DNA from: an uncultured virus (IMG/VR IMGVR_UViG_3300017963_000250)
Lineage: Duplodnaviria; Heunggongvirae; Uroviricota; Caudoviricetes
Reading direction: 5' to 3' (one strand)
DNA length: 64,000 nucleotides
IMG/VR virus record: IMGVR_UViG_3300017963_000250
The translations under genes and the position numbers were made by a program. This document shows positions 3,021 through 49,538 of this stretch, in pieces. Within the stretch, counting starts at the first letter, position 1. Each line of letters opens with the position of its first letter. The notes under the pieces are model-generated. The model ran no database searches and had not been told where the DNA came from. It was given only the letters and a program-made list of their open reading frames with translations.

Positions 3021-3530
3021 CAAAGGAGATAGTGATGTCGACCACAGCGTTAATAACCGTGAAGATAACCGGGATTGATGATCTCGCCCGCAGGATGTAT
3101 ATCGACCTCCTCAAGAATTACAACCCGGAGGATCTCGATGAAGAGAAAGAGGTGATGATGATGGAGTCGATGGTAGACAAGGACCGTAGCGGCGAATATA
3201 CCATAAAATATTATGTTGAGTATCCCACCCCATCCGCCCCTTCCTCCGAGTAGCTTCACGATCCCCCCCCAAAAAAACGCGGTGGACGTATAGCCCACCG
3301 CGCCACTGGAAAATAATGGTACTGTCAAAGAGATTTTCTCAGTCCCTGTAAACCCCCTTGTAGGTGATCCCCTGGAAGAACCGGTACCGGTACTCCGTTT
3401 TGTGCCGGCGAAAGTCTTTCAGTGTAGACCATAGTTCGCGTACCGGCACCCTGTATCGTATCCACACGCCATCAGACAGGTAGGCGAGTTCAACCATGAC
3501 AGGCTTCTCCTCCATATGGTGTCTCCTTCC

Positions 3531-6362
3531 CTAAAACATTTCCGATTGGCTTTCACTGGGCTTCTCCCATTCATGTGGGGTGCTCTCAGCGTCATCACGG
3601 TCGTAGTCGAGCGATATGCGCCAGGTCCACTTCTGGTCACCGAGCACACGGTCGCGCTTCCTTTCGGCCCCCAGCCCTTCCAGGAGCTTGCCCAGCGTTC
3701 GTTCGTCCGGGATGGCGTCCTTCTCTGTGGCCTGCCCCGCGAATCGTTTGACGTACGGGTGCGCGCCCTTGAGCGAGAACACCAGCGCGTCGTTTTCCGC
3801 GCCGTTCGCTTCGCTTCGCGCGATATTGGGGGGAAGGTCGCCGTTCGCGAGCATCGCCCGCATCAGGTTGAGGAACATCACCGCCGAGTTGGAGTCCTCG
3901 GTCGCGCGTTGCTGGTCCAGGATGTCCCGCTCGATCCAGGCAACGTGCATGTTTTCGGCAAGTCCGAGCTTTTCCAGGAACAGGTTGTAACAGGCTTTCA
4001 GTATCGAGTGGTTGTCGACTATACGTTGGTCTGCCTCAATCTTCGAGTTCGCCATGATCTCCCTGTCCGCCTCCTTGATTATCTCCTTGGGCGTGATTTT
4101 GAGCGCCTCCGGCACGAAGCAGGCCATGTAGTCCTTGCGCTTCTTCAGTTCCCATATCGACTCCTTTGACGCCTCGTTTCGGGTGATCTGGTCGAAATCG
4201 AGCGTCACCAGCCTGGACGCGACTGCTTCGCTTTCGTACCCGGTGATCAGTCTGGTCGAGCACAGGACGAACGCGGCATTGATAGCGCCGGTCTTGATCT
4301 GGAGGTCGTTCGTGGTCATCGCCCGCGCGTACGGATCGCGGTCGTAGAACGCCTGCACCGTCGCGTTGGTTTTCCGGCCGGCCTGATATTCGTTAAGTAC
4401 CAGCGGGATGCCGCAGTATTTTTCTGCCGCCCGGTTCCATGCCTTGGTCGTACTGTTGAAATTGAACGGCTTTATCTCGCGGTGCGCACCGAACAGGGCC
4501 AGGATAAACTCGGCCAGGGTCGACTTGCCGCACCCTTTCGGCCCATTCAGGAACAGCAGCGGGTAGAACCCGTAATGGTCCTTGATGTCGTTCGCGAATA
4601 ACGCCCCGACCGCGAATCCGAGTGCCTTCCACAGTTGCTGCCTGGACGCGGTCTTGTCGTATGCGTCGTGGAAGTGCCGGATCGTGTCCTCCATGAATTT
4701 CTTGGGGTTTCCCGGCATGTTGATCTTGAGGATGCCCTTCGGCGGGATGAGGTCGGTCAGCGGCATCACCTGGCCCGGTATCGCCAGACCGTTCGTGAAC
4801 ATGAAGACCTGCTGACCCTCTTGCTTCCCGACATATTGGGTCTTCCTCTTCTCCTCGGTACATGACTCGTCCGTTACGTATTCGAGGAAACTGTTGTGGA
4901 CGATCTTGGACGAATTGTCGACTAGGTGCATCCCGACCGAGGCAACCTTGTCGCAGAACTTTTGCAGGATCATGAGGTCGCTGCCGGCGATCTCGATCGT
5001 GCGGGTGATACCGTTTCTCGTCAGCGCGATGAGCCACGACACCTCGTCGTCGTCGTTCACGATCTTCTCCATCACCCGCATCGTGAAGTTGCACACCTGT
5101 ACTTTCTCGGTCTTTACCTCGCCGGTCTGCGGATCGACCTTTATTTTATTGAAAAACGTTTTGCCGTCTACCTCCTGGAAATGCTTGTTTTTTTTGCGTT
5201 TCTTTTCCGGCGCGTTCGCGCACCGGTGCGGGGACCCGTCCGGGTTTACCGGCTTTTTGTCCATGAACGTGATCGTGCCACCGCATCGGTCGCATCCGCG
5301 CTCCAGTGATGGCGGGTCGATGCCGAGTTCATCGCAAGCCTCCAGGAAGTTCTTGCCGTCCTCCTGCATCACCAGCCCGATCACATGCTTGCCGCTGCCT
5401 CCTTTCTTGACGTTGTACTTGCAGTTGCCGGCGCAGCAGTAGAATTCAATACCGTGTCGCGACACCACGAATCCGGACGGGTTGGAGTCGTTGTGAAACT
5501 TGCACAAATATTGGCCCGACCGGTCGGGCTTCATGCCGTACCGGTCACGCAGCACGTTTACCATCTCTATTTCGCGCAACTGGGCGTCTAACCGGTCGTC
5601 GGTCTCCATCTTGATCCCGGACCGCGCCGCTTTCTTGATGTCAATGAACTCCTGCCGCTCCTTTTTCTCCTTATCTTCTGTCGCCCTTTTCTCCTGCTGT
5701 GCCTCATTTACTACCTCTTCCGCTTTTTTGCGTGATATTTTCGGTGTCTTGGCGATGCGCTCCCAGGTTTTTTTATCCTTCGTCGAGTGCCACCCGCCTT
5801 TGCCGTCCCAGAACCACACATGCGAATAATCGTCCGTGGAGTGGTACTTACCGGGCAGACGCACGTAGTTCCCCCACTTGCGTTTGCCTTTCTGTTTCGG
5901 AAAGGTCTCCGGACACCCCGGCGCGACTGCTTCCGCGAATTCGTACGCCAGCCCTTGCGGTATTACCTCCTCGAAGAAAAACCAGAGGTGGTATCCGCCA
6001 GTAGAGTCTTCGAGCAGGAACGAGATTTCGCGCTCGTGCAGGACGTTAAGAACCGGGTTTATCTCGAAGAGCAGCTTCTTTTTCTCCTCTTCGAGCTTTT
6101 TACAGTCTCCGTTTATGAGCCCGAGCTTCGCTTCTTTCGCCGTGTCGTAGTCGGCGCACGCGAGACAGGACCCCTCATCCTCCGATTGGGTGTACGTGCC
6201 GATCGGCTGGCCCTTGCCCTCGATGTGATCGGCGATAAGCTTATCGGTTACCTCCTTTTTTACGTTTTTTCCTTCGGTTTTCTTCCCCTTTTGTCTCGCC
6301 TTGTAGGACCCGTAGCCATCGGTCCTCACAAAAAACAAGTCCTTTATTTTTCCCTCTAACAT
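3531..6362 (-). CDS. DNA primase-helicase (N-terminal AEP-like primase, CHC2-like Zn finger, C-terminal P-loop helicase)
   Basis: 943 aa. ADYD, EDSTGGYHLWFF and YVRLPG primase-like motifs; CKFHNDSNPS...CCAGNC Zn ribbon; Walker A GPKGCGKST; Walker B-like LVLNE. Confidence 0.8.
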   Translation of the reverse strand: MLEGKIKDLFFVRTDGYGSYKARQKGKKTEGKNVKKEVTDKLIADHIEGKGQPIGTYTQSEDEGSCLACADYDTAKEAKLGLINGDCKKLEEEKKKLLFEINPVLNVLHEREISFLLEDSTGGYHLWFFFEEVIPQGLAYEFAEAVAPGCPETFPKQKGKRKWGNYVRLPGKYHSTDDYSHVWFWDGKGGWHSTKDKKTWERIAKTPKISRKKAEEVVNEAQQEKRATEDKEKKERQEFIDIKKAARSGIKMETDDRLDAQLREIEMVNVLRDRYGMKPDRSGQYLCKFHNDSNPSGFVVSRHGIEFYCCAGNCKYNVKKGGSGKHVIGLVMQEDGKNFLEACDELGIDPPSLERGCDRCGGTITFMDKKPVNPDGSPHRCANAPEKKRKKNKHFQEVDGKTFFNKIKVDPQTGEVKTEKVQVCNFTMRVMEKIVNDDDEVSWLIALTRNGITRTIEIAGSDLMILQKFCDKVASVGMHLVDNSSKIVHNSFLEYVTDESCTEEKRKTQYVGKQEGQQVFMFTNGLAIPGQVMPLTDLIPPKGILKINMPGNPKKFMEDTIRHFHDAYDKTASRQQLWKALGFAVGALFANDIKDHYGFYPLLFLNGPKGCGKSTLAEFILALFGAHREIKPFNFNSTTKAWNRAAEKYCGIPLVLNEYQAGRKTNATVQAFYDRDPYARAMTTNDLQIKTGAINAAFVLCSTRLITGYESEAVASRLVTLDFDQITRNEASKESIWELKKRKDYMACFVPEALKITPKEIIKEADREIMANSKIEADQRIVDNHSILKACYNLFLEKLGLAENMHVAWIERDILDQQRATEDSNSAVMFLNLMRAMLANGDLPPNIARSEANGAENDALVFSLKGAHPYVKRFAGQATEKDAIPDERTLGKLLEGLGAERKRDRVLGDQKWTWRISLDYDRDDAESTPHEWEKPSESQSEMF

Positions 6363-11508: not shown

Positions 11509-12261
11509 ATGCCGGATTACAACAACGTACAACTGATGGGGAGACTTACCCGTGACGTCCAGATCAGGCCGACACAGTATGGCTCTATCGGGTCGTTTGG
11601 GCTCGCGGTGAACAGACGCGGCAAAGGGCCGAACGCGAAAGAGGAGACCACATTCGTCGATATCACCGTTTTCGCGAAGCTGGCGGATGTATGCGCGCAG
11701 TACCTCCGCAAAGGCAGTCCGGTGTTCGCGGCGGGGCACCTCAAGCTCGAACAGTGGAACGACCGAACTACCGGCGAGAAACGTAGCAAGCTCGGCGTGG
11801 TAGCCGAAACGGTCCAGTTCCTCGACCGACCACAGGGACAAAGTAACGGTCAGTACCAGGCACAAAACTGGCAGCAACAACCGAACCAGAACTACCCGAC
11901 ACCGCCGCCGCCGCCAGAACAGCATAAAATCCAGGACCAACAACCGCCGGCACAACCGCAGGTACGCGAGTCGATCATGCCCGCGCCCGACACGAACCAG
12001 CCCGGATGGGAAAAAAACCAGGTCGGGTTCAGAAAAGCTGGCGGACACACATGGGGCGAACTCGCCAATGACGTCCAATTGCCGGACGGGACTACCGGAC
12101 GCGATTACCTGACCAAATTGTCGTACTGGAAAGACCAACCGAATATCGCCAGGGTCGCGCAGTGCGCGCTCGACCTGGTCGACGGACAGACCGCAACGCA
12201 ACCGCCAGACCCCGGACCGCCGGCGATGGATGAGCCCGGTGTCGACGAACCGCCGTTTTAG
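11509..12261 (+). CDS. ssb: Single-stranded DNA-binding protein with extended C-terminal region
   Basis: NNVQLMGRLTRD, FGLAVNRR, YLRKGSPV, acidic C-terminal tail DEPPF. Confidence 0.92.
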   Translation: MPDYNNVQLMGRLTRDVQIRPTQYGSIGSFGLAVNRRGKGPNAKEETTFVDITVFAKLADVCAQYLRKGSPVFAAGHLKLEQWNDRTTGEKRSKLGVVAETVQFLDRPQGQSNGQYQAQNWQQQPNQNYPTPPPPPEQHKIQDQQPPAQPQVRESIMPAPDTNQPGWEKNQVGFRKAGGHTWGELANDVQLPDGTTGRDYLTKLSYWKDQPNIARVAQCALDLVDGQTATQPPDPGPPAMDEPGVDEPPF

Positions 12262-12268
12262 GGGAAGA

Positions 12269-12363
12269 TTCACCGCAGAGGGCGCAGAGGACGCAGAGGG
12301 GAGAGAAGACTTGGGGGAAACTTTTTGGAAAAAGTTTCCCCCAAACCCCCTTCAAAAACTTTA
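12269..12363 (+). repeat. Dispersed REP-like intergenic repeat, copy A
   Basis: TTCACCGCAGAG(G)GCGCAGAG..GCAGAG plus GGGGAAACTTTTT..AAAAAGTTTCCCC palindrome plus CCCCCTTCAAAAACTTT. Confidence 0.85.
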
Positions 12364-12379
12364 TTGTGGAGGAGAACAA

Positions 12380-13216
12380 ATGCATGAAATATCCGACATA
12401 GACTCCGATCAATACGGTGAGTATGTCGACGTCACCATAAGCGGCGTAGTTCAGCGTATGCGCCGGATAAGGGCCGGCAAGTTTATGATGGGCTCACCGG
12501 AGAACGAACCGAACCGGGACGACGATGAGACGCTGCATGAAGTGACCATAACGCAGGACTTCTGGCTGGCCGATACGGCCTGCACCCAGGAACTGTGGGA
12601 AGCAGTAATGGGCAGTAACCCCAGCCGGTTCAAAGGAGCGAAGAGACCGGTCGAGAAAGTGACCTGGCATGATTGCAAAAAGTTCCTCGGAAAACTTGAC
12701 GGGTTCCGGTTGCCTACCGAGGCGGAATGGGAATATGCCTGCCGGGCAGGGACGACTACCCCGTACCGTTTTGGCGACAGCATTACGCCGGAGCAGGCAA
12801 ATTACGGCAGTAATCGGGAAGAAGCTGTCGCGGTGAAGTCTTTCCCCTGCAATGCCTGGGGGTTATACGAAATGCATGGTAACGTGTGGGAGTGGTGTTC
12901 CGATTGGCATGGGGAATATAGAGGAGACGCTATTGACCCCGCTGGCCCCGAGGTTGGCTCGCTCCGCGTGTTGCGCGGCGGTAGCTGGTTCTACTACGCC
13001 AGGTTTGCCCGCTCTGCTTTCCGCGGCAGGCGCGATCCTGACTTCCGCTTCGGCAACACCGGTTTTCGTCTTGCCCGAGGTTATATGGAAATGGCAGGGA
13101 AGGGAGAATGGTGGTGCCGGACAGGCGCAGCGGAGCAAGTCGGTCAGGCACCATGGGAAAGGACGACCGTGACAATTGATGGTGTACGGTATAAACTTGT
13201 GCCGCTGGAGAATTAA
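12380..13216 (+). CDS. Formylglycine-generating enzyme (FGE-sulfatase/SUMF1, C-type lectin fold) domain protein
   Basis: FMMGS, RLPTEAEWEYACRAG, NAWGLYEMHGNVWEW, RVLRGGSW, GFRL. Start refined to ATG 12380 after GGAGGAG. Confidence 0.9.
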   Translation: MHEISDIDSDQYGEYVDVTISGVVQRMRRIRAGKFMMGSPENEPNRDDDETLHEVTITQDFWLADTACTQELWEAVMGSNPSRFKGAKRPVEKVTWHDCKKFLGKLDGFRLPTEAEWEYACRAGTTTPYRFGDSITPEQANYGSNREEAVAVKSFPCNAWGLYEMHGNVWEWCSDWHGEYRGDAIDPAGPEVGSLRVLRGGSWFYYARFARSAFRGRRDPDFRFGNTGFRLARGYMEMAGKGEWWCRTGAAEQVGQAPWERTTVTIDGVRYKLVPLEN

Positions 13217-25440: not shown

Positions 25441-26070
25441 GTGATGACGAAAAAGAACGGTATGGACGAAAAGATAAAAGAGTTGCGGGCGGCGGCAAGA
25501 AGACGTCCCATACATGAAATTTACACGCAACCGTTATCGCTTCCCTTTGTACTGAAAGACAGGGGCGTTTATGACGATCTGTATTTCGCGCCAGATGGTT
25601 ACTATTATTATATGCATGGGATATCGGTATTTTTCTCCAACCTGTCCGAAGATGGCATGAAGAATTTGGTGGACCGTGTGATTGAGGATAGTCGTTTGAA
25701 GCTTTTTGTTGGGAATTGCAAAACCGGAAAGGAGTATTTTTCGATCGAGCCCCTCCACCCGATCGTGTACGAGGTGAACCCGGTGTCTATGTCTTCGGTA
25801 GAGCCGGTGAATATGCTCATCGGTGGCGAGAAGGTCATGTACCGTACAGAGGAGGAGGCGAGGGACGCCGCCAATGCCTGTATGGATAAGGCCAGGTTTT
25901 TTGACTTGACGTCGGTGCTCAACGATACACAGAAAATTTCCTGGCCCCTTGTTCTGACGGGAAGGCGTAACGACATATTGAAGGTCGAGCTTTTCCTTAA
26001 GAGACATTTGTCTGATTATGTGGGCTGCACCGTGTTTATACACGGGATGCTGGGGAGACCGCTGAGTTGA
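25441..26070 (+). CDS. Hypothetical protein
   Basis: Start refined to GTG 25441 overlapping the previous stop. Confidence 0.55.
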   Translation: MMTKKNGMDEKIKELRAAARRRPIHEIYTQPLSLPFVLKDRGVYDDLYFAPDGYYYYMHGISVFFSNLSEDGMKNLVDRVIEDSRLKLFVGNCKTGKEYFSIEPLHPIVYEVNPVSMSSVEPVNMLIGGEKVMYRTEEEARDAANACMDKARFFDLTSVLNDTQKISWPLVLTGRRNDILKVELFLKRHLSDYVGCTVFIHGMLGRPLS

Positions 26071-26570
26071 CAGGAAGGGGAGGAATGTTTGGAGGCGATC
26101 CACGGATGAGTAATATGGGCAAGAAGGATCGGTTGATGCGTGATGTCGATTCAATATACCGTGATATCTGAAGCAGAGACGGTAGCAAGTAAAATACTGC
26201 AATCGGCCGGTGATGGTATTTTTATAATGGGAATTCGACGTGTGGTAGATAGAGAACCTTGTTGCGGACACGAAGAAGCCTCTGGGTCATCTTTTGATCG
26301 GGAACTGCCTTCTAATGCTATCTGGCAATCCATTAAACATTGGGTAATAGATGGTTCACGCCCCTCTCAGGATCACGTTGACAACATTGTTGATACAATT
26401 ATAGACTTCAGACAAGAGACGCACAGGCTGAAAGGAGAAATTCAGGCATATATACCACTAGAAGAACCGGAAGAATAACCCCACTAAACGGATGTTTGAC
26501 GCCAGATGACATTTTCGCCCACTCCCCCCACCATATGGTGTCTCATATTGCCATCTCGGAAAACAACCTC

Positions 26571-26598
26571 TTGACAAAGGCGTCAATGTGGATATAAT
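26571..26598 (+). promoter_or_regulatory. Consensus sigma70 promoter
   Basis: TTGACA (26571), 16 bp, TATAAT (26593). Confidence 0.75.
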
Positions 26599-26652
26599 GA
26601 GAATTGTTATAGGGGGAGGCGTGACCGGCGGTAATGCCTGCTTGTATCCCCG

Positions 26653-26904
26653 CTACTCATATTCAATCTCACACTCCTCGGGATGCATTTCTCCCGATGC
26701 CAGCATAAATACAATCAGCTTGATACTCTTTGCCGGTTCACGGATGCCTTTCTCCCAGGTAGAGATGCTGCTAGGTGAAACTCCCAAAATTTCGCCTAGT
26801 TCCATTTGTGTCGCCTTTATCCGTAATCGTGCCATCCTGCAAGCCATTGCAAAATTTTCTGCTTTGACTTCAAGAATTATTTTTCTTTTTTTTCTCTTTG
26901 CCAT
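26653..26904 (-). CDS. XRE-family HTH repressor
   Basis: ATQMELGEILGVSPSSISTWEKGIREP; SD AGGAGG. Confidence 0.85.
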   Translation of the reverse strand: MAKRKKRKIILEVKAENFAMACRMARLRIKATQMELGEILGVSPSSISTWEKGIREPAKSIKLIVFMLASGEMHPEECEIEYE

Positions 26905-27555
26905 AATTTTATCCTCCTATAAAAATTATACTCAGACCAATTTCTATATTCTATAAAAAAAATAGGGGGAAAATAAAAAACCTTCTTTTAAAAGGAATAG
27001 ACAGTATACAACTTTTGGTTTAGAAGGAGACGAGTAAATGGAATACATTAACTTCAAGGACAGGCTTTTAAAAAAGATAGGAGACCATCTTGAGGAGCAT
27101 GACAAGTTTCCGAATACGGTATATATACCGAATCACGAAAAAATTGAGATCATGAAGCTGACAGCCGATGAAGTGGGAAGCGAGGTAGCCGGGCAGATAT
27201 TCCGATATGGCCCCACGACCTGGAAAATTTGTTCGGTCTAAAAATTATTTGGGACGCAGAAACTTTCGAAGTAAAACGGGTAAAAACGGGGACATGTCCA
27301 TGGTAAAGCTTGAAGCACGAAAAGAGAATGGTGGCATATGGATATCCGAGGGTTCGTTCGAACACCTGCTGAATTGTCTCGCTAACCAGCAGTTCGTTGG
27401 CGAGCGTCCACCATGTGGCGACGCTGTCGCGATGTCGCCAGAGGAATATGCAACAATACATCAGGAAATGCAAGACGTGATCGACGATTTTTATCGCCAG
27501 TGCATGGGGTTTTTCCATGGCAAAAAATAATTCCTTGAAAAATTAAATTTTATCC

Positions 27556-27583
27556 TTGACATTTCAATTTTATACCGTACAAT
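27556..27583 (+). promoter_or_regulatory. Promoter of the omegaRNA/array locus
   Basis: TTGACA (27556), 16 bp, TACAAT (27578); predicted TSS about 27588-27590. Confidence 0.75.
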
Positions 27584-27587
27584 AAAG

Positions 27588-27812
27588 GTGGACTATGCGG
27601 GGGTAACCCCGAGGTGAATCAGCTTCAGTGCTTCGGCACTACGTTATCTGGGGATATGACACCCGCGTGTGCTTCTCCAGCATTCGGCACTGTCGTCCCT
27701 GAGTAAACAGACCTGTGTTGCAGGGTCAGTCGAGGGGACGCGACAAACCCGGATAACATTGGCGAGGAGAGACGCCGAAAGGCGCGTTACAAGCCCCGAA
27801 AGGGGCTCTTTT
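27588..27812 (+). ncRNA. omegaRNA (HEARO-like IscB scaffold) with a 5' anti-repeat, acting tracrRNA-like
   Basis: Characteristic omegaRNA segments CAGCTTCAG, CTACGTTAT, ATGACACC, TGCTTCTCCAGC, CACTGTCG, TAAACAG, ATAACATTGGCGAGGAGA, GCGTTACAAG. Ends in AGCCCC-GAAA-GGGGCT + T-run. iscB lies downstream. Confidence 0.85.
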
Positions 27813-27852
27813 TATAGGGGGACGTCATTGCGTGGCAGCGTCACTGATAAGA

Positions 27853-29128
27853 GTTTGTCGGCAACCGTAGCCCGAGCGGCCAAGCATCCGAGTTCACAGC
27901 AAGCCATAGTTCGGTGGCAATAATAATAGTTCGCAGCAAAACATAGTTCGACAAAAACGATGGGTATTTCTTCCATCACTGGCTCGCAGACTTAGCTATG
28001 CGTGTTCATCAACAACCATAGTTCACAGTATAAAACGGTGGTCGTCGAATAAGGGATCAGAGTTCACCGCAACCATAACTCCACGACAATAGCTTGCACC
28101 GGCGAGTTCACCAACAACCATAGTCCGACTGATTGAACGTCATATAAGTTTGCCGTCAACCATAGTCCACAGCCAGTTCACAACAACTATAGTTCAAAGA
28201 CTTGCTCATAGCAGTCCAATTTTTCTGTGGTTCGCCACAAACCATAGTCCTAATATAAAGAGAAGGTGGAAATTCGCCACAAACCATGGTCCGGTATGCA
28301 AAAAAGTGTTGACAGCGATATTGAATTGCAGCCGTTCACGGCAAGCCATAGTACAATTAAAGGCTCCGAGTCCACAGTAACCATAGTCCAACTAAAACAT
28401 GGCAGCGCCGGCAGGAACCTTTAATGATGTCCCGTTCACAGCAAACCATAGTCCAAAATGCAAAAAAGAGAAACACCGAAACATGCGCTCACCGCAACCA
28501 AGTCCAAAAATTTGTAACTGCTGTTCACGGCGAATCATGGTCCAGCGAGGATTACGAAGGATGGGGTTCGCCGCAACCCATAGTCCGACAGTTAGCCAGA
28601 TGCATTTAAGTTCACAGCGAATCATGGTCCAGGCACAATGCGACGGATTTGGTTCACAGCGAACCATAGTCCAAGATGTATAGAAGTTTGTTCACCATTA
28701 ACCATAGTTCAACAAAAACAGAGTATGGCTAACATCATGTTCACAGCAAAACATAGTCCAACAAAAGCAATGGCACCAGATGTTGGTTCGCCGCAAAACA
28801 TAGTTCAACAAAGCTCCTTTTGGCCTAGCAATGCGTTCACAGCGTACCATAGTTCAACAGAAACGTGAGAGAATTACCCTCTCTCTATCAATCAAGAGTA
28901 TGTCGTTCACGGCGAACCATAGTTCAACAGGAACAGTTCAAGTCATCGTATCTGTAAAGTCCTTAATCGAGTTCACGGCAACCCATAGTTCAACAAAAAC
29001 TTTACGCGGTGTAGGTTCTCATGAAAAAATTGCGTTCACAGCAAACCATAGTTCAACAAAAACTGGAGAATTGTGTGAATTGCAGCATATGCGCCCGGGT
29101 TCACAGCAAACCATAGTTCAACAAAAAC
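27853..29128 (+). CRISPR. Degenerate CRISPR-like array, about 26 repeats, consensus GTTCACAGCAAACCATAGTTCAACAAAAAC
   Basis: Repeat starts at 27853, 27892, 27929, 28004, 28062, 28106, 28148, 28176, 28230, 28272, 28334, 28370, 28434, 28487, 28523, 28566, 28610, 28652, 28690, 28739, 28786, 28835, 28905, 28971, 29034, 29099, with unique intervening sequences. Confidence 0.85.
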
Positions 29129-29164
29129 CCCCAGTAAAATGGGGGTTTTACCAAAGGAGGTAAA

Positions 29165-30517
29165 ATGACAGTATTTGTCCTCAACAAAAACAAGAAACCA
29201 CTGATGCCCTGCACCGAGCATCGGGCGAAAAAACTGATGGAGTCCGGACGCGCAGTCGTTCATAAGTGTTTCCCCTTTACCCTGCGAATCAAAACGTGTA
29301 TAGACGCGGAAGCGCCGGCCCTGCGCCTCAAGATATGTCAGGGCGCGAAACGTACCGGCATGGCGGTCTTGAACGGTAACAAGGTGATATTTCTGGTCGA
29401 GATCGGGCATAAAAACCCCCACATGAACATCCACAGCAGGGCATCCCTCCGACGCGGTCGCCGGCACCGCAAGACGAGGTACCGACCGGCCAGGTTCAAG
29501 AACCGGCGCAAACCGAAAGGGTGGCTACCGCCCTCCCTCTCATGTAGGGTCGACCAGATAATGCACGCAGTCAAAAAGATCCGCGATAGTCTGCCGATCG
29601 CCGAGCTCTCCGTCCAGACCGCCAAGTTCGACACGCAAAAGATGCACAATTCGGAGATATCCGGCGTGGAGTACCAGCAGGGCAAACTCGGCGGATACGA
29701 GGTACGCGAGTATCTCCTGGAAAAATGGGGCAGGAAATGCGTATACTGTGGAAAGAAAGACGTCGAACTCGGGATCGACCATATCGTACCGAAAGCACGC
29801 GGTGGATCGAATAGCGTCGAGAACCTGACGATCGCCTGCAAGACGTGCAACAGAAAAAAGGGCCGGAAAACGGCAGCGGAGTTCGGGCACCCGGAGGTGC
29901 TCGCCAAAGCGAAAAAACCGCTGAAAGAGGCGGCGTTCATGAACGCGATCCGGTCACGCGCCTACATGAGATTGCTCGATGTCTTCCTGCCTCAACGCAT
30001 AGAGGTCGGGACCGGCGCTATGACCAAGATGAACAGGATAACCGCCGGCCTGCCGAAACTCAAATGCCTCGATGCCTGCTGTGTCGGTGAAAGCACGCCG
30101 GAGAAACTGGATTTTACCGGTGTCAATTACTACCAGACATGGGATTACGTCGGACGCGGTAACCGCCAGATCTGCCAGCCGATAAACAAGGACGGATACC
30201 CGGTAAGGCACCGCAGCAGAAAAAAGTCGGTCGACGGCATCCAGACCGGCGACTTCGTCCTCGGCATGAAAAAAAACGGCGACAAGATGACCGGCCGGGT
30301 CAATATCCGCGCGTCGGGGAATTTCTACATACCGGTCAAAGGCGGCAAACGGTTCACGTTCACCCGCCGTAATACCCGCCTCATTCAGCACGGAGACGGA
30401 TGGCGATACGGCAAAAAGAAATTGCCAGAGGGGGTACAACCTGGTAATCGCAGGAGACAACACCATATATGCATAGAGAATGAGGGGGGAACGCCTCCAA
30501 GATTTACACCTCTGTGA
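29165..30517 (+). CDS. iscB: IscB RNA-guided endonuclease (PLMP, split RuvC, bridge helix, HNH); RuvC apparently inactivated
   Basis: N-terminal VFVLNKNKKPLMPC; Arg-rich bridge helix RRGRRHRKTRYRPARF.NR; HNH CVYC...DHIVPKARGGSNSVENLTIACKTCNRKKG; SD AAGGAGG. Confidence 0.93.
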   Translation: MTVFVLNKNKKPLMPCTEHRAKKLMESGRAVVHKCFPFTLRIKTCIDAEAPALRLKICQGAKRTGMAVLNGNKVIFLVEIGHKNPHMNIHSRASLRRGRRHRKTRYRPARFKNRRKPKGWLPPSLSCRVDQIMHAVKKIRDSLPIAELSVQTAKFDTQKMHNSEISGVEYQQGKLGGYEVREYLLEKWGRKCVYCGKKDVELGIDHIVPKARGGSNSVENLTIACKTCNRKKGRKTAAEFGHPEVLAKAKKPLKEAAFMNAIRSRAYMRLLDVFLPQRIEVGTGAMTKMNRITAGLPKLKCLDACCVGESTPEKLDFTGVNYYQTWDYVGRGNRQICQPINKDGYPVRHRSRKKSVDGIQTGDFVLGMKKNGDKMTGRVNIRASGNFYIPVKGGKRFTFTRRNTRLIQHGDGWRYGKKKLPEGVQPGNRRRQHHICIENEGGTPPRFTPL

Positions 30518-30934
30518 TTTTTTAAAGAACAGGAGCGTACATGGCAGAGTATATGGCAGAGTGCAGTTATTGTGGTCGCGAATATACAGAGAGCTACTGT
30601 ATCTGTGTTGGTGCGCAGATGCAACAGTTTTATACCGGCATTGTTCAGGACGACATTCGGCATCTAACAGCAGCCCTTGATAGGTTGACCTCTGTCCTTG
30701 AATATGGCAGGGCAAAAAAATGACCAGAAATTGTCGGAGGGGGGGGGTGATGGAGCCGTACAATGACGGGGCTATATCGCTTCTGCACGAACTTTTGGGG
30801 TATATCCACGATGATATATATGTGAAAGTTCCTCGTGGTGCAGTCAAAAAGGGGCAAAACATCAGGTTGACGAGGCATAACGATTTACTTGTTTTCGCCG
30901 ACAAAGTACGTGTTTTTCTGGATAAGGACAAGAT

Positions 30935-31498
30935 ATGACCAGATATATCGGGTATGCCAGGGTGAGCACCACGGACCAGGATCTTACGATGCAACTGGAC
31001 GAGCTCGAAGAGGTCGGGTGCAAGAAGATTTTCTCCGACAAGGTCAGCGGCGCGAAAGAGAAACGGCCCGGCCTGAACAAATGCCTCGCTTATCTCAAGG
31101 AGGGCGACACCCTCGTAGTATGGCGACTCGATCGGTTGGGGCGGTCGATGTTGCACCTCGTCCAAACCGTAAACGAGCTCAAAGAGAGGGGCGTCGCTTT
31201 CAAGTCGATCCGGGATGGCGCGATCGACACCAATACCGCGTCGGGCGAACTCGTCTTCAACATATTCTCGGCATTAGCGCAATTCGAACGGTCGATCATA
31301 CGCGAACGGACAATGGCCGGTCTCAAAGCGGCGCGGGCCAGGGGCAGGATCGGCGGCAGGAGGCCGATCACGGCGAAAGACCCGAAAGTGCGGGTGGCGA
31401 AAAAGATGCACGAGAACCACGAGATGAGCATTAAGAGTATTTGCAATACTCTTAAAATATCTCAGGCGACGTTTTATCGGTATCTGAAATTGAAATAG
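30935..31498 (+). CDS. Serine recombinase, resolvase/invertase family, with C-terminal HTH
   Basis: IGYARVST.DQ, GDTLVVWRLDRLGRS, ERT.AGL.AARARGR.GGR, ATFYRY. Confidence 0.93.
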   Translation: MTRYIGYARVSTTDQDLTMQLDELEEVGCKKIFSDKVSGAKEKRPGLNKCLAYLKEGDTLVVWRLDRLGRSMLHLVQTVNELKERGVAFKSIRDGAIDTNTASGELVFNIFSALAQFERSIIRERTMAGLKAARARGRIGGRRPITAKDPKVRVAKKMHENHEMSIKSICNTLKISQATFYRYLKLK

Positions 31499-31507
31499 GG
31501 AGGGGGA

Positions 31508-31550
31508 TTCACCGCAGAGGCGCAGAGGGCGCAGAGATAAGAGAAGAATT
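31508..31550 (+). repeat. Dispersed REP-like repeat, copy F (partial)
   Basis: TTCACCGCAGAGGCGCAGAGGGCGCAGAG. Confidence 0.75.
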
Positions 31551-31588
31551 AGGGGATGCTTTGACCGGTAGAGGGCAAAAGGAGGTAG

Positions 31589-32008
31589 ATGATGGCGAGA
31601 ATCAGGGTTCCAATTATGATCAGGTTGATCAGGGCAGCGAATAAAACGACCCAGAAGCAACTTGGAGAAGAGTTGACGGTAACGGCACAGACGGTGTCGA
31701 ACTGGGAGTCAGGCAAAACCACCCCACCAGCGAGAAAGTTGGAAAAATTGGTGAAAATGTTTGAAAGCATCAGTATATATGAAGACGAAAAGGGTGTGAC
31801 GTCTAGCAAAAAATCAGAGAAATGTGTCTGTTGTGGTAACGCCGAGCAAATTGGGAAGTCTAAATATTGTGGAACGTGCCTTGGAATTCGCGGCGAACTA
31901 ATAAGGTATACCAGATGGTTACATTATAGCAGGCGTGGGATACTTGAAGTGGGCACAGTGGTTGAGATGTACCTCGGGAGCAAAAAAAGATATGGGGTTG
32001 ACTATTGA
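31589..32008 (+). CDS. XRE HTH regulator with C-terminal Zn finger
   Basis: TQKQLGEELTVTAQTVSNWESGKTTP; CVCC...CGTC. Confidence 0.8.
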   Translation: MMARIRVPIMIRLIRAANKTTQKQLGEELTVTAQTVSNWESGKTTPPARKLEKLVKMFESISIYEDEKGVTSSKKSEKCVCCGNAEQIGKSKYCGTCLGIRGELIRYTRWLHYSRRGILEVGTVVEMYLGSKKRYGVDY

Positions 32009-32677
32009 GAGAGGGGTTAAAGTGACCACAAAAAACGAGAATGGCCTTGCCATCTGTGAAAGATGCAATCTCCCCATCAGGAAATGGGGGGAGGTGCATG
32101 TCAAAGACGCTCGTACCGGTGAGACAGAACGGATCATCTGCAAGCCATGCAACGCTGACGAACAACACGAAGCGTGGCGAGAGTCGGTGCAACCGATAGA
32201 GAGGGAAACCCATGTGCTACAGGAGAAGATCGAAAAAATGCTGAGTGCCGAAGGAGATGTCGACCAGACGGAATTTCTGAAGGTAGCTAATGGTCTGTTG
32301 TCTTTATTGCAGGTTATTTTGAGAGGAGAATGGAGGTAGATGATGGTGGGATGGTTAAATGTCGACCAAGTTCAAGAAGAATAGAAAGCGATGAGACGTG
32401 GTTCTATGACCATGGTCTTACCGGTATGGACATGTATACATTTGAAGACGATAAGTTGACATATTTCTCTATAGATGCATGAGGGGGTGACTATGCAGAT
32501 CAAAATTCATAAGGACAAGACGATGCACTTGATGGGGATGCTGGACGAGTGCAGTCGCCTTTTGTACGAATCCGTACAACCTGTGCCTGAAATTCCAAGA
32601 AAAGAACTTCTGGCTGAGGTCGAAAGGTATCTCACCGAGCTGTTCCAGGATGGGACACTCCAGATAGAGGAGAAAAC

Positions 32678-33031
32678 ATGAAAAACGATAACCGGTATAA
32701 CCAGTACAAGTATACTCCTGCGTCTGATAACACAAAGCTCAGAGGCAAAATGTCGCCAGAAACACTGGAGTTTGTCAGCAAAATGGCCAGGGCCAAAGTT
32801 GTCCTTGAGAAGATAGGGGATGAGCGCCGGCGGCAGGACGAAAAGTGGGGCGAACAGAACCATCACCCCTTGTATTGGATGGCGATTTTGCAGGAAGAGG
32901 TCGGTGAAGCGGCGAAGGCACTCGTAGAAAAAAAACTCGACGAGTACCGCACCGAACTGATCCAGTGTGCGGCGGTCGCCATGGCCGCGATCGAGTCGCT
33001 AGATCGCGGTGAGTGGAGGAGAGAACTATGA
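32678..33031 (+). CDS. MazG-like NTP pyrophosphohydrolase family protein
   Basis: ERRRQDEKWGEQNH...ILQEEVGEAA...ELIQCAAVA. Confidence 0.75.
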   Translation: MKNDNRYNQYKYTPASDNTKLRGKMSPETLEFVSKMARAKVVLEKIGDERRRQDEKWGEQNHHPLYWMAILQEEVGEAAKALVEKKLDEYRTELIQCAAVAMAAIESLDRGEWRREL

Positions 33032-35083: not shown

Positions 35084-35486
35084 ACCGTGCCCGTTTTGCG
35101 GGTGCAAGCAGATCCGCGCCGGCAAGGCATATTCCGAACCCGGTTGGGTGTGCAAAGTCCATTGTGTCGCTTGCGAGGCGAACGTGGAGGATACCTTGCG
35201 CAAAGACGCCATCGCCTTGTGGAATTCGCGGATATGGCGCATAGAGACGCCGGAGACCGCCGCCGACGCCAACAGGATGCTTATGGAGAAAACCAAGAAG
35301 TACCTGGTCGACATCATCCTGACCCTGTACCAGAAACAGGGCGAACGCGAGGAGGAAATTATCGCCTCGCTCGCCGATGTGCGTTCGGTGGTGGAAAAAG
35401 TGTACTTGCCGTCGGAGATCGAGGACCTGCTCTCCGACGCATACGTGCCGTTTCGCGACCGGAAAAAGATGGAGAAATATTTATGA
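35064..35486 (+). CDS. Lar-family (restriction alleviation-like) Zn-finger protein
   Basis: LKPCPFCG...VHCVAC...AIALWNSR. Confidence 0.7.
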   Translation: MTEPNLKPCPFCGCKQIRAGKAYSEPGWVCKVHCVACEANVEDTLRKDAIALWNSRIWRIETPETAADANRMLMEKTKKYLVDIILTLYQKQGEREEEIIASLADVRSVVEKVYLPSEIEDLLSDAYVPFRDRKKMEKYL

Positions 35487-36283
35487 AATCATTGAGAATA
35501 CTTAGCCTAGGGGCAGGTGTCCAGAGCACCACGCTGCTGCATCTCGCACTAGCTGGCGAGATTCCGCGGCCAGATTATGCCATTTTTGCCGATACCGGAT
35601 GGGAGTCAATGGGGGTATACGGGCACTTGTTCGACCTGGAGGAAGCAAGCACGATTCCGGTCGAAACAGTAAGCGCCGGCAATATTCGCGACGATTGCCT
35701 TTCTGCTGTTCGAGGCAAATCTTTTGGATTTGCCTCGATGCCTTTTTTTACCCCTAATGGAGAGAATATAGAAGGGCGGTTACGTCGGCAGTGTACACGA
35801 GAGTACAAAATTGAACCGATCACAAAAAAGATACGCGAATTGCTCGGCGTGAAGCGCGTAACTAGCCAGCGAATAGAGCTACAGATCGGCATAAGCCTGG
35901 ATGAGATGCGCCGGTGCAAGAAAAACCGTGTACCTTGGATTACTAATACCTGGCCCTTGATTGACCTGCGCATGACCCGCAGGGATTGTCGCCAATGGCT
36001 CGAAATGCATGGCAAGAAGATCCCGCAGAAATCAAGCTGCATCGGCTGTCCATATCACGACGACCAGTGGTGGGTTGACTGCCGGGAAAACTCGCCGTTA
36101 GAGTGGCAAGATGCTGTCAGCTTTGACCAACAGATACGGCACTTGCCGCGTATAAAATCACCATGTTACCTGCACCGGTCGCTTTTGCCACTGGACGAGG
36201 CAATCGATCAGGCAAGCAAGGACAACGGGCAGAAACGATTTCCTTTTATGCTCGCAGAGTGCGAAGGCATGTGTGGAGTGTAA
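35483..36283 (+). CDS. PAPS-reductase-like adenine nucleotide alpha-hydrolase (phage DNA-modification associated)
   Basis: SLGAGVQST, FADTGWE, RQCTREYKI, IGISLDE, KSSCIGCPY; start refined to 35483. Confidence 0.8.
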   Translation: MKSLRILSLGAGVQSTTLLHLALAGEIPRPDYAIFADTGWESMGVYGHLFDLEEASTIPVETVSAGNIRDDCLSAVRGKSFGFASMPFFTPNGENIEGRLRRQCTREYKIEPITKKIRELLGVKRVTSQRIELQIGISLDEMRRCKKNRVPWITNTWPLIDLRMTRRDCRQWLEMHGKKIPQKSSCIGCPYHDDQWWVDCRENSPLEWQDAVSFDQQIRHLPRIKSPCYLHRSLLPLDEAIDQASKDNGQKRFPFMLAECEGMCGV

Positions 36284-38055: not shown

Positions 38056-38967
38056 ATGCAAGGAGTTTCTGTGAAAACAATGCATCTTTTTGCCGGTATA
38101 GGAGGAGGCCTTTATGCAGACCTCATTTTGGGACATGAGCCTGTCGTCGCCGTCGAGCAAAACCATTACTGTTGCAAAGTCTTGCGACAGCGAGCCCGAG
38201 AAGGATGGTTCCCCAGCCTGCAAGTGTGGGAAGGGGACATCCGCATGTACGATCCATCCGAGCACAAAGGCAGAGTGGATTCGATCGCAGCGGGCTGGCC
38301 TTGCCAGGACATTAGCGTTGCTGGAAGAGGAGCAGGGCTTGACGGTGAACACAGCGGACTCTTTTTCGAAGTCGTCAGGATCGCCGGCGTATTACGACCA
38401 CGCTACATCTTCATGGAAAACTCACCAGCTATCGTTACTAGGGGACTCGACAGGGTTCTCGGATCGCTGGTCGAGCTCGGGTATGATTGCCGATGGACGG
38501 TATTATCCGCAGCGAATTCGACTTCCGCGCAAATACGTGCCCGGTGGTGGTGCCTTGCCACTTTACCCGACGCCGACAGTGACAGACAGCAAAGATCGGA
38601 CATATCAAGTAGCGAACGGAAGGAAGTTGCCGACATTGGCGGGAGCAGCCAGAGGGTTCTGGCGAGCAGTGAAAGCATCGGATGCGCAAACCGGTTGGAT
38701 AATGGCAGACGACAAACATGCAAGCCTGAGAGATCAGGTAAAAATGTATCCAGCTCCGGCAGCACGGGATCACAGGAGCGGGAAGGGCAGGAAAGACAAC
38801 GGGCACACACCACAACTGCCGGAGGTGATTGGTGGGCAATTGAGCCCGGAATGGGTCGAGTGGCTAATGGGGTTCCCAACCGGCGCGACCGAATTGAGGG
38901 ATTAGGTAACGCGCAGGTGCCGGCACAGGCGGCGCTTGCATGGACAATACTCAGCAAAAAGGGGTAA
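38056..38967 (+). CDS. DNA (cytosine-5) methyltransferase, large subunit (motifs I-VIII and X)
   Basis: HLFAGIGG, AGWPCQD, FMENS, R.RWW, LGNAQVP; true start may be a few codons downstream. Confidence 0.88.
   Translation: MQGVSVKTMHLFAGIGGGLYADLILGHEPVVAVEQNHYCCKVLRQRAREGWFPSLQVWEGDIRMYDPSEHKGRVDSIAAGWPCQDISVAGRGAGLDGEHSGLFFEVVRIAGVLRPRYIFMENSPAIVTRGLDRVLGSLVELGYDCRWTVLSAANSTSAQIRARWWCLATLPDADSDRQQRSDISSSERKEVADIGGSSQRVLASSESIGCANRLDNGRRQTCKPERSGKNVSSSGSTGSQEREGQERQRAHTTTAGGDWWAIEPGMGRVANGVPNRRDRIEGLGNAQVPAQAALAWTILSKKG
38114..38905 (+). CDS. Overlapping alternative-frame MTase small subunit (TRD-like region plus motif IX)
   Basis: +1 frame: LYPTPT, MYPAPAARDH, GGQLSPEWVEWLMGFPTGAT (motif IX), which the main frame lacks. 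Start uncertain. Confidence 0.7.
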   Translation: MQTSFWDMSLSSPSSKTITVAKSCDSEPEKDGSPACKCGKGTSACTIHPSTKAEWIRSQRAGLARTLALLEEEQGLTVNTADSFSKSSGSPAYYDHATSSWKTHQLSLLGDSTGFSDRWSSSGMIADGRYYPQRIRLPRKYVPGGGALPLYPTPTVTDSKDRTYQVANGRKLPTLAGAARGFWRAVKASDAQTGWIMADDKHASLRDQVKMYPAPAARDHRSGKGRKDNGHTPQLPEVIGGQLSPEWVEWLMGFPTGATELRD

Positions 38968-38969
38968 AC

Positions 38970-39653
38970 ATGTTTATTTTGCATAACCCAAGAGAATTCA
39001 GTTTTACGTCCGTATCCCCAAAAATAGTGAAAGTAGCGAGGAAGCTGCATGTGCTCGATCTGTTTTGCGGTGCAGGCGGGGTCTCCATGGGGCTATACGA
39101 GGCGGCACACGGTCTTGTCAATATCACCGGTATCGACATCGACAGGCAACCGGACTACCCGTTCAACTTCATACAGGAGAATGTCTATAAAATATCGCCC
39201 CAGTACCTGAAGGGTTTCGACTTCATCTGGGCCTCGCCACCATGCCAGAGATACAGTTTCGCGACCAGGAAAGCGCGCAGAGCATTGCATCCAGATTCGA
39301 TTCCGCCGACAAAAAGACTTCTGCGTCACGCCACTGTGCCATGGGTTATAGAAAATGTACGTGACGCGCCAATCCGCAAAGATCTCATGCTTTGCGGGTC
39401 GTTTTTCGGGCTCGGGGTGATAAGGCACCGGTACTTCGAAATAGACGGTTTCAAGATACCGAAGTTCAAAGCGAAATGTAAACACCCGGAGAAGTTCTTT
39501 ACTGTTGCGGGAGGAGGAACCGGCACCGTGAAAGAATGGCAGAACGCGATGGGTATTTTTCATACGAAGAATCGCAAGTCTCTGCGCGAGTCGATCCCGC
39601 CGGCGTATAGCAGGTTCATTTTCTCGTATTACCTGGAGATGCTTTTGTCTTGA
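38970..39653 (+). CDS. Second, compact C5 DNA methyltransferase-like protein
   Basis: LDLFCGAGG, ASPPCQ, IENV, RHRYFE, ESIPPAYS. Confidence 0.85.
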   Translation: MFILHNPREFSFTSVSPKIVKVARKLHVLDLFCGAGGVSMGLYEAAHGLVNITGIDIDRQPDYPFNFIQENVYKISPQYLKGFDFIWASPPCQRYSFATRKARRALHPDSIPPTKRLLRHATVPWVIENVRDAPIRKDLMLCGSFFGLGVIRHRYFEIDGFKIPKFKAKCKHPEKFFTVAGGGTGTVKEWQNAMGIFHTKNRKSLRESIPPAYSRFIFSYYLEMLLS

Positions 39654-43713: not shown

Positions 43714-44463
43714 TTACACCTCCTCCCAAAAACCTTTTATGTACAGGTCTATCGCTTGCCCTTCACCTTTGTAGTCTACCACCTGGGACGAACTGAGCTC
43801 CTGGGTGACATCGGCGAACCCGCCGGTGGCGAAACTTTGCCAGGCGGCGCTACTGCCGTCCTTTCTAAGCCACACGCTTTTCTTTTCGTCCGCGCTATCT
43901 GCGAGCATAGTGACCAGGGTAGAGGTCGGCGGCACATAATTGACACAACTTACATTGGCATACGTTGCGGCTGTACCTCCCGAAAGCACTTCGCCCACGT
44001 CCGCATCATCGTATAGAATCATGCGGAGTCTATCGCCGAACGTTTTGCCGACAAGAAGGTTGCTGCCACTGTCGTTGTAATACGAACCCAGGCGGCGTTG
44101 CTTGGTGTACCCTGCCGGCTGGGTCGGCGAAGTCGAGCTTATAGAGAACCGAAAGGTGGTAGCCAGGGTGGTCGGGTGCTTGAACACCCATATATAATAC
44201 CAGGTTGACGCGGCCTCACTCCCGGTATCGAGATCCGTGGTGAGGTCCAGGGTGTTGGTACCGGTTATTGCGATATCGGTGGTATCGTCGTCACTGCGGC
44301 ACTCGCCCGGCCCGATGTCTATCTGGTATGTCGGGTTGGTGACGTTGTTCTCCAGGGTAAATCTACTGAGATAGCTTTTGGGGTACCCAATCAGGGTCGG
44401 GTCGAACTGGATATCGGCTATTTTCCTGCCGCCGGTTAGCCTTGAAAAATTTTCTGTTGCCAT
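43714..44463 (-). CDS. Fibre/virion protein
   Basis: LDTGSEAASTWYYIW...PAGYT..RRLGS motif common in phage fibre proteins. Confidence 0.6.
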   Translation of the reverse strand: MATENFSRLTGGRKIADIQFDPTLIGYPKSYLSRFTLENNVTNPTYQIDIGPGECRSDDDTTDIAITGTNTLDLTTDLDTGSEAASTWYYIWVFKHPTTLATTFRFSISSTSPTQPAGYTKQRRLGSYYNDSGSNLLVGKTFGDRLRMILYDDADVGEVLSGGTAATYANVSCVNYVPPTSTLVTMLADSADEKKSVWLRKDGSSAAWQSFATGGFADVTQELSSSQVVDYKGEGQAIDLYIKGFWEEV

Positions 44464-49190: not shown

Positions 49191-49538
49191 TTATTCGACC
49201 TTTTCGGCGTGATAGCGCCGGTAGGAATCTTTTATGAGGTCCCACCAGGCGTGTACAGATTTCACCCGCACTTCCTTGTCGAGTTTGGACAGTTTCTCGT
49301 CATTAGAGATATACTCGATAAGATCGGGAAGCGCGGTATTCGCGTTCTTGTAGTTCGCTTCGACATACTGTTCGGACGGGGTCGCACACCCCATTATCCC
49401 GCTGGATACGACAATAGCGACCAGAAGGACCGCCATCGTCAGGATGATAAGTTTCCATTTACCACTCATCGCTTTGTATTCCTCCCACAGTTCCTTGAAC
49501 TTTTCATGCTGGGTTAAAACTTTTAAAATTTTGGACAT
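49191..49538 (-). CDS. Putative lipoprotein/membrane protein
   Basis: Hydrophobic helix followed by IMG-C. Confidence 0.55.
   Translation of the reverse strand: MSKILKVLTQHEKFKELWEEYKAMSGKWKLIILTMAVLLVAIVVSSGIMGCATPSEQYVEANYKNANTALPDLIEYISNDEKLSKLDKEVRVKSVHAWWDLIKDSYRRYHAEKVE

Follow-up and report, generated by a model that had tools for sequence, protein, structure and literature searches.

CRISPR-associated IscB systems (CRISPR stands for short palindromic repeats that are clustered and regularly interspaced), such as KraIscB-1 and DelIscB, combine a small IscB, an omegaRNA scaffold, an upstream array and repeat/anti-repeat pairing, and are described without adaptation genes (PMC12660989, PMC11610941, PMC10734217, PMC10691335). 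The association of arrays with IscB came about several times, and such arrays may have been derived from segments of the omegaRNA; two origins have been proposed for arrays of OMEGA systems (from obligate mobile element-guided activity), namely the serial duplication of omegaRNA segments or landing beside an existing array, and standalone omegaRNAs function in trans (PMC10691335). The guide-adaptor hairpin of IscB is the counterpart of the Cas9 repeat:anti-repeat duplex (Kato et al., PMC9640706). For DelIscB, a 16-nt guide is sufficient, and the use of IscB array RNA as two separate RNAs is stated as unknown in the same report (PMC12660989). Here, we analyzed an array of 26 repeat units found between an omegaRNA and an iscB gene in the DNA of an uncultured virus of the class Caudoviricetes (IMG/VR record IMGVR_UViG_3300017963_000250). 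The stretch analyzed, hereafter the window, is 64 kb long and belongs to a record of at least 93 kb; 105 open reading frames (ORFs) were scanned within it. The window locus shares with the CRISPR-associated systems the small IscB, the scaffold, the upstream array, a pairing repeat and a lack of adaptation genes in the window. Our results suggest, with a probability of roughly 0.6, that the array supplies guides to the adjacent IscB and works together with a split omegaRNA.

Organization of the iscB Locus

From left to right on the + strand, the locus consists of a promoter, the HEARO/omegaRNA, a terminator-like hairpin, the repeat array, a GC hairpin, a ribosome-binding site (RBS), iscB and a serine invertase gene, with the following features:

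27556 to 27583, + strand: predicted sigma-70-like promoter of the helper RNA (TTGACA, 16 nt, TACAAT; 11 of 12 hexamer matches; predicted start at about 27590)
27590 to 27815, + strand: helper RNA, an omegaRNA resembling a tracrRNA (trans-activating CRISPR RNA) and without its own 5' module (Rfam HEARO match and cofolding)
27792 to 27815, + strand: hairpin and T run resembling an intrinsic terminator, the end of the helper RNA before the array (6-bp stem with five GC pairs, then CTTTTTAT)
27853 to 28689, + strand: part of the array that appears eroded, 18 units with periods of 28 to 75 nt, most of them tailless
28690 to 28834, + strand: three units with a full or nearly full repeat of 29 to 30 nt and spacers of only 19, 17 and about 20 nt
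28835 to 29128, + strand: regular part of the array, where the repeats are five 30-mers, the spacers measure 40, 36, 33 and 35 nt and the final two repeats are identical
29128 to 29157, listed on the - strand: GC hairpin (CCCCCA / TGGGGG) between the last repeat and the RBS of iscB, terminator-like on both strands
29165 to 30517, + strand: iscB, 450 aa (RRXRR, PF14239, 2.1e-58; HNH, 3.4e-14; strong RBS)
30935 to 31498: serine invertase/resolvase gene, 418 nt downstream of iscB

The helper RNA was recognized by the Rfam model RF02033 (HEARO) at 27567-27776, with 89.3 bits for a gathering score of 83 (E = 6.5e-18), and it is the sole HEARO in the window. Positions 1 to 8 of the model fall inside the promoter and the first helix is marked as non-paired in the Rfam alignment, from which it follows that the transcribed RNA would be devoid of the 5' strand of the guide-following helix and of the 5' half of the first hairpin. 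Since the scaffold lies upstream of the array with a promoter and a terminator of its own, pairing between the two could only occur in trans.

This arrangement was compared with 77 IMG/VR loci carrying relatives of IscB, 19 of which were scanned with Rfam. All 19 had a HEARO spanning model positions 1 to 211, with a GUCAAC-type 5' strand, that ended 22 to 85 nt upstream of iscB; the gathering score was reached in 17, the two lower scores being 73.4 bits (L074) and 45.2 bits (L079). The window's HEARO stops 1,389 nt upstream of iscB, the array filling the interval, and the promoter takes the place of its 5' strand. Regular CRISPR arrays with repeats of about 28 to 37 nt were also noted less than 2 kb from IscB genes that have complete cis omegaRNAs, in L091 to L094 (about 4800-6250), L073 (1442-1838), L074 (2926-3106) and L084 (1787-2170).

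A separate observation concerns the stretch 29116-29146, where the GTTCAAC of the last repeat, AAAAA and the hairpin CCCCCAGTAAAATGGGGG resemble by eye the 5' end of a canonical HEARO, taken for this comparison as GUCAAC.. followed by a CCCC..UAAA..GGGG hairpin. It may be a relic of an omegaRNA formerly located directly upstream of iscB.

Complementarity Between the Repeat and the Helper RNA

The consensus of the repeat core is GTTCAC-N7-CATAGTYC (21 nt), and an A-rich tail of 9 nt completes the 30-nt repeat. When guide-plus-core RNA was cofolded with the first 40 to 51 nt of the helper RNA, repeat positions 1 to 6 (GUUCAC) paired with 27614-27619 (GUGAAU) and positions 14 to 21 (CAUAGUYC) with the 5' end of the helper at 27590-27597 (GGACUAUG). 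A helper hairpin (27598-27611) lies between these two trans helices, and the remainder of the helper is the HEARO scaffold. Of the 22 in-register cores, 19 folded into this three-way junction, with energies between -6.9 and -15.5 kcal/mol. No second anti-repeat that could serve the tail, nor any other complement of the tail, was found in the window. The preliminary description of this DNA, made from its letters alone, had tied the array to the neighboring IscB and omegaRNA, and this was supported; the repeat complements precisely the missing strands of the helper.

The variation among units follows the same pattern. Positions 1 to 6 and 14 to 21 are nearly fixed, as opposed to the variable positions 7 to 13 and 22 to 30. 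Seven kinds of change were seen at paired positions and six of them keep the pair: G1>A, C4>U, A5>G (six times), C6>U, A17>G (three times) and C or U at position 20. At the positions where a transition would abolish the pair, U2, U3 and U19 are present in 22/22 cores and U16 and G18 in 21/22, the exceptions being due to a register shift in unit 28062. Even in the most degenerate unit (27853), both helices are still possible through wobble pairs, as judged by eye. Such wobble-compatible and strand-specific variation makes sense only as RNA pairing.

According to the model that we propose, the helper RNA (about 27590-27815) would be made from its own promoter, stop at its own terminator, and correspond to a HEARO scaffold minus the 5' strand of the guide-adaptor helix. 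An array unit read on the + strand, that is, a guide followed by the 21-nt core, would give an RNA similar to a CRISPR RNA (crRNA). With core blocks equivalent to the strands missing from the helper, any unit could dock on it in trans, like a crRNA on a tracrRNA, and docking would restore the guide-adaptor module. The A-rich tail and the spacer beyond about 16 to 20 nt would stay unpaired and be dispensable for guiding, and they could be deleted while selection keeps the core, yielding compact units of about 37 to 44 nt; that these parts pair with nothing would explain their loss. The tail would be relevant only for the addition of units.

The match between the repeat and the scaffold's own missing strands favors an origin of the array from omegaRNA segments over capture of an existing array. 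One can go further and picture the independent, de novo birth of a CRISPR-like system, in which a permuted omegaRNA gave up its 5' module to become the repeat of a trans array of 26 guides served by an HNH-only nickase. The repeat would then consist of a core required for interference, which all units conserve, and a tail required only to add units, which persists only where the array grows. We put this forward only tentatively, as an idea with the odds against it. The circular permutation could have come about, for example, through a tandem duplication followed by two deletions, and a precedent for tandem HEARO copies is found in one of the related loci, with two of them at 598-1034 (L027).

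Anatomy of the Array

A scan for the 21-nt core delimited 26 repeat units at 27853-29128 on the + strand, with 25 distinct spacers; 36 nt lie between the end of the array and the start codon of iscB. The core motif has 21 occurrences in the array and a single one in the rest of the 64 kb, for a chance expectation of 1.5, and none of 100 shuffles attained this total of 22. No other array of this motif is present in the window. At the iscB end, the last five repeat cores start at 28835, 28905, 28971, 29034 and 29099, giving periods of 70, 66, 63 and 65 nt, and the periods of this block of five 30-mers agree with those described previously. In a post-hoc permutation test, P was 0.001 for none of the last four periods falling below 63. 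To the left of the regular block, 14 of 21 periods fall within 36 to 49 nt. Among the 25 gaps between cores, 11 measure 15 to 23 nt, and intermediates of 26 to 37 nt also occur.

The match to the tail increases toward iscB (rho = 0.65, p = 3e-4), as does the core score over all 26 units (rho = 0.48, p = 0.014); the rise of the period in that direction is weak (rho = 0.35, p = 0.085). Hence, the leftward loss of the tail and the shortening of most periods to 36-49 nt, as outlined in the preliminary description, were recovered as a trend, but not for every unit. Long units are found deep in the array at 27929 (GACAAAAAC, full tail, period of 75 nt), 28370 (AACTAAAAC, full tail, period of 64 nt) and 28272 (period of 62 nt). 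In addition, just left of the regular block, the units 28690, 28739 and 28786 bear a tail and are followed by spacers of 19, 17 and about 20 nt. The constant repeat length and near-constant spacer length that characterize an array built by Cas1-Cas2 are not seen in the array as a whole, where periods vary from 28 to 75 nt and only the last four are regular (63 to 70 nt).

In two places, 28004 and 28148, a core is fused to a repeat, each being directly followed by ACAG, the continuation of the repeat start. This is the scar expected from a deletion between the GTYC at the end of a core and the GTTC of the next repeat, and it fits deletion through microhomology. The compact units have kept the pairing core of 21 nt and about 16 to 23 nt in front of it, in line with the earlier proposal that older units were trimmed to what IscB needs. 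The compact units are best explained by erosion through deletion, with selection maintaining the core.

Several observations weigh against parts of this interpretation. As for the use of the array as guides, the only promoter matches for it are two 9/12 matches inside the array itself, at chance level. The trans helices are short (6 and 8 bp), and the -9.2 kcal/mol obtained with the commonest core was matched by 19 of 500 shuffles (p of about 0.04). When phages and plasmids were searched with the locus (E ≤ 1e-5), matches were confined to the iscB coding stretch and gave no protospacer; the array alone, searched at E ≤ 10, had a best E of 0.1, which is at chance level, and two 20-mers taken from the two iscB-proximal spacers had 0 matches in IMG/VR. 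With no protospacer found, neither a target nor a target-adjacent motif (TAM) backs guide use. Regarding erosion, the three tail-bearing units with spacers of 17 to 20 nt are unexplained by a simple loss from the tail side, and compact units in the middle of the array pair more strongly (-12 to -15.5 kcal/mol) than the regular ones (-9.2 kcal/mol), so that the compact form could equally be native. Regarding growth, 21 in-register cores were compared, a set that excluded 28062 and the four cores with indels (27853, 28176, 28370 and 28487), and their sequence distance did not follow array distance (Mantel r = 0.01, p = 0.45); core 27892, for instance, is one base away from the last two cores. 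Derived repeat variants are also common to non-adjacent units (28523 and 28610; 27929 and 28786; the stretch ATGCAAAAAAG after 28272 and 28434), which indicates that the history of the array was not purely polar and included recombination or internal duplication. The array that had been described as polarized is thus polarized in its tails, weakly so in its periods and not in core similarity, and a polarity of age is not demonstrated.

Three further sequence matches were noted within the array. Eleven nucleotides of ATGCAAAAAAG are identical right after two cores (28293-28306 and 28455-28468), a shared tail variant, and an 11-nt identity, TGAATTGCAGC, links two spacers (28322-28332 and 29076-29086), both with E = 0.004 in a local comparison; these two identities between units hint at internal duplication or related targets. 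The best self-match pairs the spacer 28404-28433 with 49214-49243 in one of the element's own genes (26 of 30 positions, E = 0.007 uncorrected for 26 queries, mismatches off synonymous positions). As a self-target it is unproven and near chance level, and we did not retain it; it could indicate targeting of related elements.

One alternative is that nothing was trimmed: the compact unit, a core of about 21 nt with a guide of about 17 to 20 nt, would be the native form produced by a route independent of Cas1, and the long units would be later additions or the product of another route. The stronger pairing of compact units with the helper RNA and the three tail-bearing units with short spacers speak for it, together with far-left cores that are as near to the consensus as the right-hand ones. 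On the other hand, gaps of 15 to 23 nt accompanied by intermediates of 26 to 37 nt look like erosion rather than the work of a ruler, remnants of the tail (GAC, AA) and a tail variant persist in several compact units, and the two fusion scars show that deletions do occur. We consider this alternative unlikely, and erosion by deletion preferable.

Acquisition of Spacers and Source of the Repeat

The unique spacers imply that some acquisition process existed. Given that its repeats surpass the others in uniformity and completeness, the iscB end is the best candidate for the growing end, and the regular block is most likely the least eroded and probably the youngest end. Among the 105 ORFs of the window, Cas1, Cas2, Cas4 and Cas6 had 0 matches, and they were likewise absent from the Pfam and PHROGs results for the window.

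The preliminary description had advanced a specific source for the array, namely that an array of the class 1 type was captured from a host, that host Cas1-Cas2, reading the opposite strand, perhaps adds spacers of 33 to 40 nt at the iscB end, and that IscB reads the array antisense while old units are trimmed. The right-hand block does resemble a CRISPR array in its 30-nt repeats and 33-40 nt spacers, and its repeats are the most uniform ones. Its 30-mer begins with GTT and ends with AAC on both strands, and such ends are common in CRISPR repeats. With no adaptation gene in the window, Cas1-dependent growth would need a host enzyme, and elements without adaptation genes can borrow host machinery, as type IV-A does with host I-E (PMC11656645). 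However, no host repeat was found. The repeat core had 0 matches in IMG/VR; the genomes of 185,579 species gave six single chance matches and no array, and Joint Genome Institute (JGI) metagenome contigs gave ten single matches in addition to a copy of the same element, with no other array, although the host may be unsampled. The search against CRISPR repeats suggested earlier as a way to find a host type I/III locus gave no Rfam CRISPR-DR match, either at E ≤ 1 around the locus or at the gathering score over the whole window. Mini-arrays of viruses that rely on a host system carry the very repeats of the host (PMC11656645). Nor is the strand the expected one: complementarity to the omegaRNA, at its two missing helices, is found on the + strand of the repeat, and for 20 of 22 units pairing was poorer with the reverse complement. 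For integration into double-stranded DNA, moreover, the notion of "antisense" is meaningless. The conserved repeat blocks coincide with the missing strands of the omegaRNA, for which descent from an omegaRNA is a better fit. Capture from a host therefore appears improbable, and the proposals of an antisense reading and of host Cas1-Cas2 involvement were not upheld, the latter in view of the absence of adaptation genes from the ORFs scanned and of the repeat from any cas1-linked array in the collections searched.

The copies available were almost identical. The JGI contig mentioned above (L010) represents this element, from which it differs by one mismatch over 6,621 nt, and its array layout is identical; the sole difference, C>G at its position 3678 (29111 in the window), affects the unpaired position 13 of the last repeat. 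Two sequencing runs from two studies (X1 and X2) each gave one contig identical to 27500-29400; these are possibly the source samples and hence not independent support. Two other runs (X3 and X4) had no cover of 27500-29400, and no variant of the array was found among the available copies.

The IscB Protein

The product of iscB has the features of its type, with a PLMP/RRXRR N-terminus, a split RuvC with an inserted HNH and a length within about 400-500 aa, and it also matched the solved IscB proteins. Cas9 models matched only its HNH stretch. The nearest IscB in a search of 5.8 billion clusters was 55% identical, and a search of IMG/VR with the single protein retrieved no relative. The HNH histidine and both CxxC pairs are retained. 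In contrast, three of the four RuvC catalytic positions are substituted, with C58, Q151, K300 and D303 in the places occupied by D, E, H and D in most relatives. In OgeuIscB, the corresponding residues are RuvC D61, E193, H340 and D343, and HNH H247 (PMC9640706). In an alignment of 24 sequences, the first RuvC position was D in 20, K in three (P0002, P0037 and P0070) and C in the window protein, and the second was E in 23; the D-E-H-H-D series could be read by tblastn in 75 of the 77 viral loci with IscB relatives. In P0002, P0037 and P0070, which are the three closest relatives, K occupies both the first and the third RuvC positions. Judging from these residues, the window IscB is probably an HNH-only nickase that would cut the target strand only.

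Lastly, it is very improbable that the repeats are not guides at all and represent iterons bound by a protein or a dead relic array unused by IscB, since, against the lack of a target, the irregular spacing, the degenerate cores 27853 and 28487 and the altered RuvC site, there stand a strand-specific and wobble-compatible variation, a two-block match to the one helper RNA that is without those blocks, an intact iscB ORF with HNH and a strong RBS, and a helper promoter with 11 of 12 matches.

Context of the Element

Outside the locus, PHROG and Pfam searches of the window identified an AEP primase/helicase, a single-stranded DNA-binding protein (SSB), RuvC, two C5 methylases, kinases and an Mtd-like domain, and no capsid or terminase. 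The searches of IMG/VR did not retrieve the element. We regard the carrier as a mobile element, possibly a phage. No flanking inverted repeats that the invertase downstream of iscB could use were found in 25500-33000. A protein similar to FGE-sulfatase/C-type lectins (12230-13216) and a weak match to the second domain of Mtd (43714-44463) suggest a target of a diversity-generating retroelement. A PAPS-reductase/SspD-like protein (35087-36283), the two C5 cytosine methylases (38056-39653) and a Ser/Thr kinase similar to PD-T4-6 (52989-54212) are possible defense or counter-defense cargo.

Comparison With Known Systems

The locus bears on both the origin of IscB-linked arrays and the two-RNA question, with trans pairing as its sole option and a repeat that corresponds to the missing 5' module of the omegaRNA. 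Its uneven units would represent a natural deletion series, pointing to a minimal crRNA of about 16 nt of guide and the 21-nt core, which could be useful for compact dual-RNA IscB tools. With an altered RuvC and an intact HNH, its IscB would be a natural RNA-guided nickase. If the de novo birth proposed above were true, the locus would be a living intermediate for the origin of the crRNA:tracrRNA pair and of arrays, and for the shedding by an array of the parts that its effector does not need.

The locus differs from canonical IS200/IS605 OMEGA-IscB in that no complete cis-guide omegaRNA lies directly upstream of iscB, and no Y1 transposase was matched in the ORFs scanned. Virus-borne mini-arrays and other arrays of mobile genetic elements without adaptation genes are similar in being carried by a mobile element that has none; mini-arrays rely on a host effector and host-identical repeats and hold one or two spacers, whereas the window has its own effector and helper RNA, 25 spacers and no host match (PMC11656645).

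Type II systems offer a closer parallel: their helper RNA, too, is separate and pairs through its 5' end with the repeat part of each array transcript, and the split occurs here in the counterpart of the Cas9 repeat:anti-repeat (PMC9640706). Unlike them, the window has a 450-aa IscB without a recognition (REC) lobe as effector, none of cas1, cas2 and csn2, and a repeat of 21 to 30 nt instead of about 36 nt. Cas9 systems use an RNase III route, for which the duplex of the window would be too short.

Among the viral loci, L051 is comparable in having a repeat formed by the 5' part of the omegaRNA and an array directly upstream of a relative of IscB: at 3021-3477 it has four copies of the first 28 nt of the omegaRNA with a period of 61 nt, the last being continuous with a full HEARO (3243-3477). 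In L051, only the last guide is joined to the scaffold, whereas in the window no copy is.

The CRISPR-associated IscB systems are the nearest of those described, and the window has their omegaRNA scaffold, an array of unique spacers adjoining iscB, and a repeat complementary to an anti-repeat of the scaffold, through helices shorter than the long hairpin of DelIscB. In those systems, array and scaffold are parts of one upstream non-coding RNA and form a long cis hairpin of direct repeat and anti-repeat (PMC12660989). In the window, the scaffold has a promoter and a terminator of its own and is located upstream of the array, the pairing is short and made up of two blocks, the 26 units are very uneven and RuvC is altered. 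A literature search, with supplements outside its scope, found no published report of compacted or polarized IscB arrays. While it is already known that IscB can be CRISPR-associated and that arrays joined it several times, new here are a permuted layout that forces pairing in trans, a short bipartite pairing, a natural series of unit sizes and an altered RuvC site.

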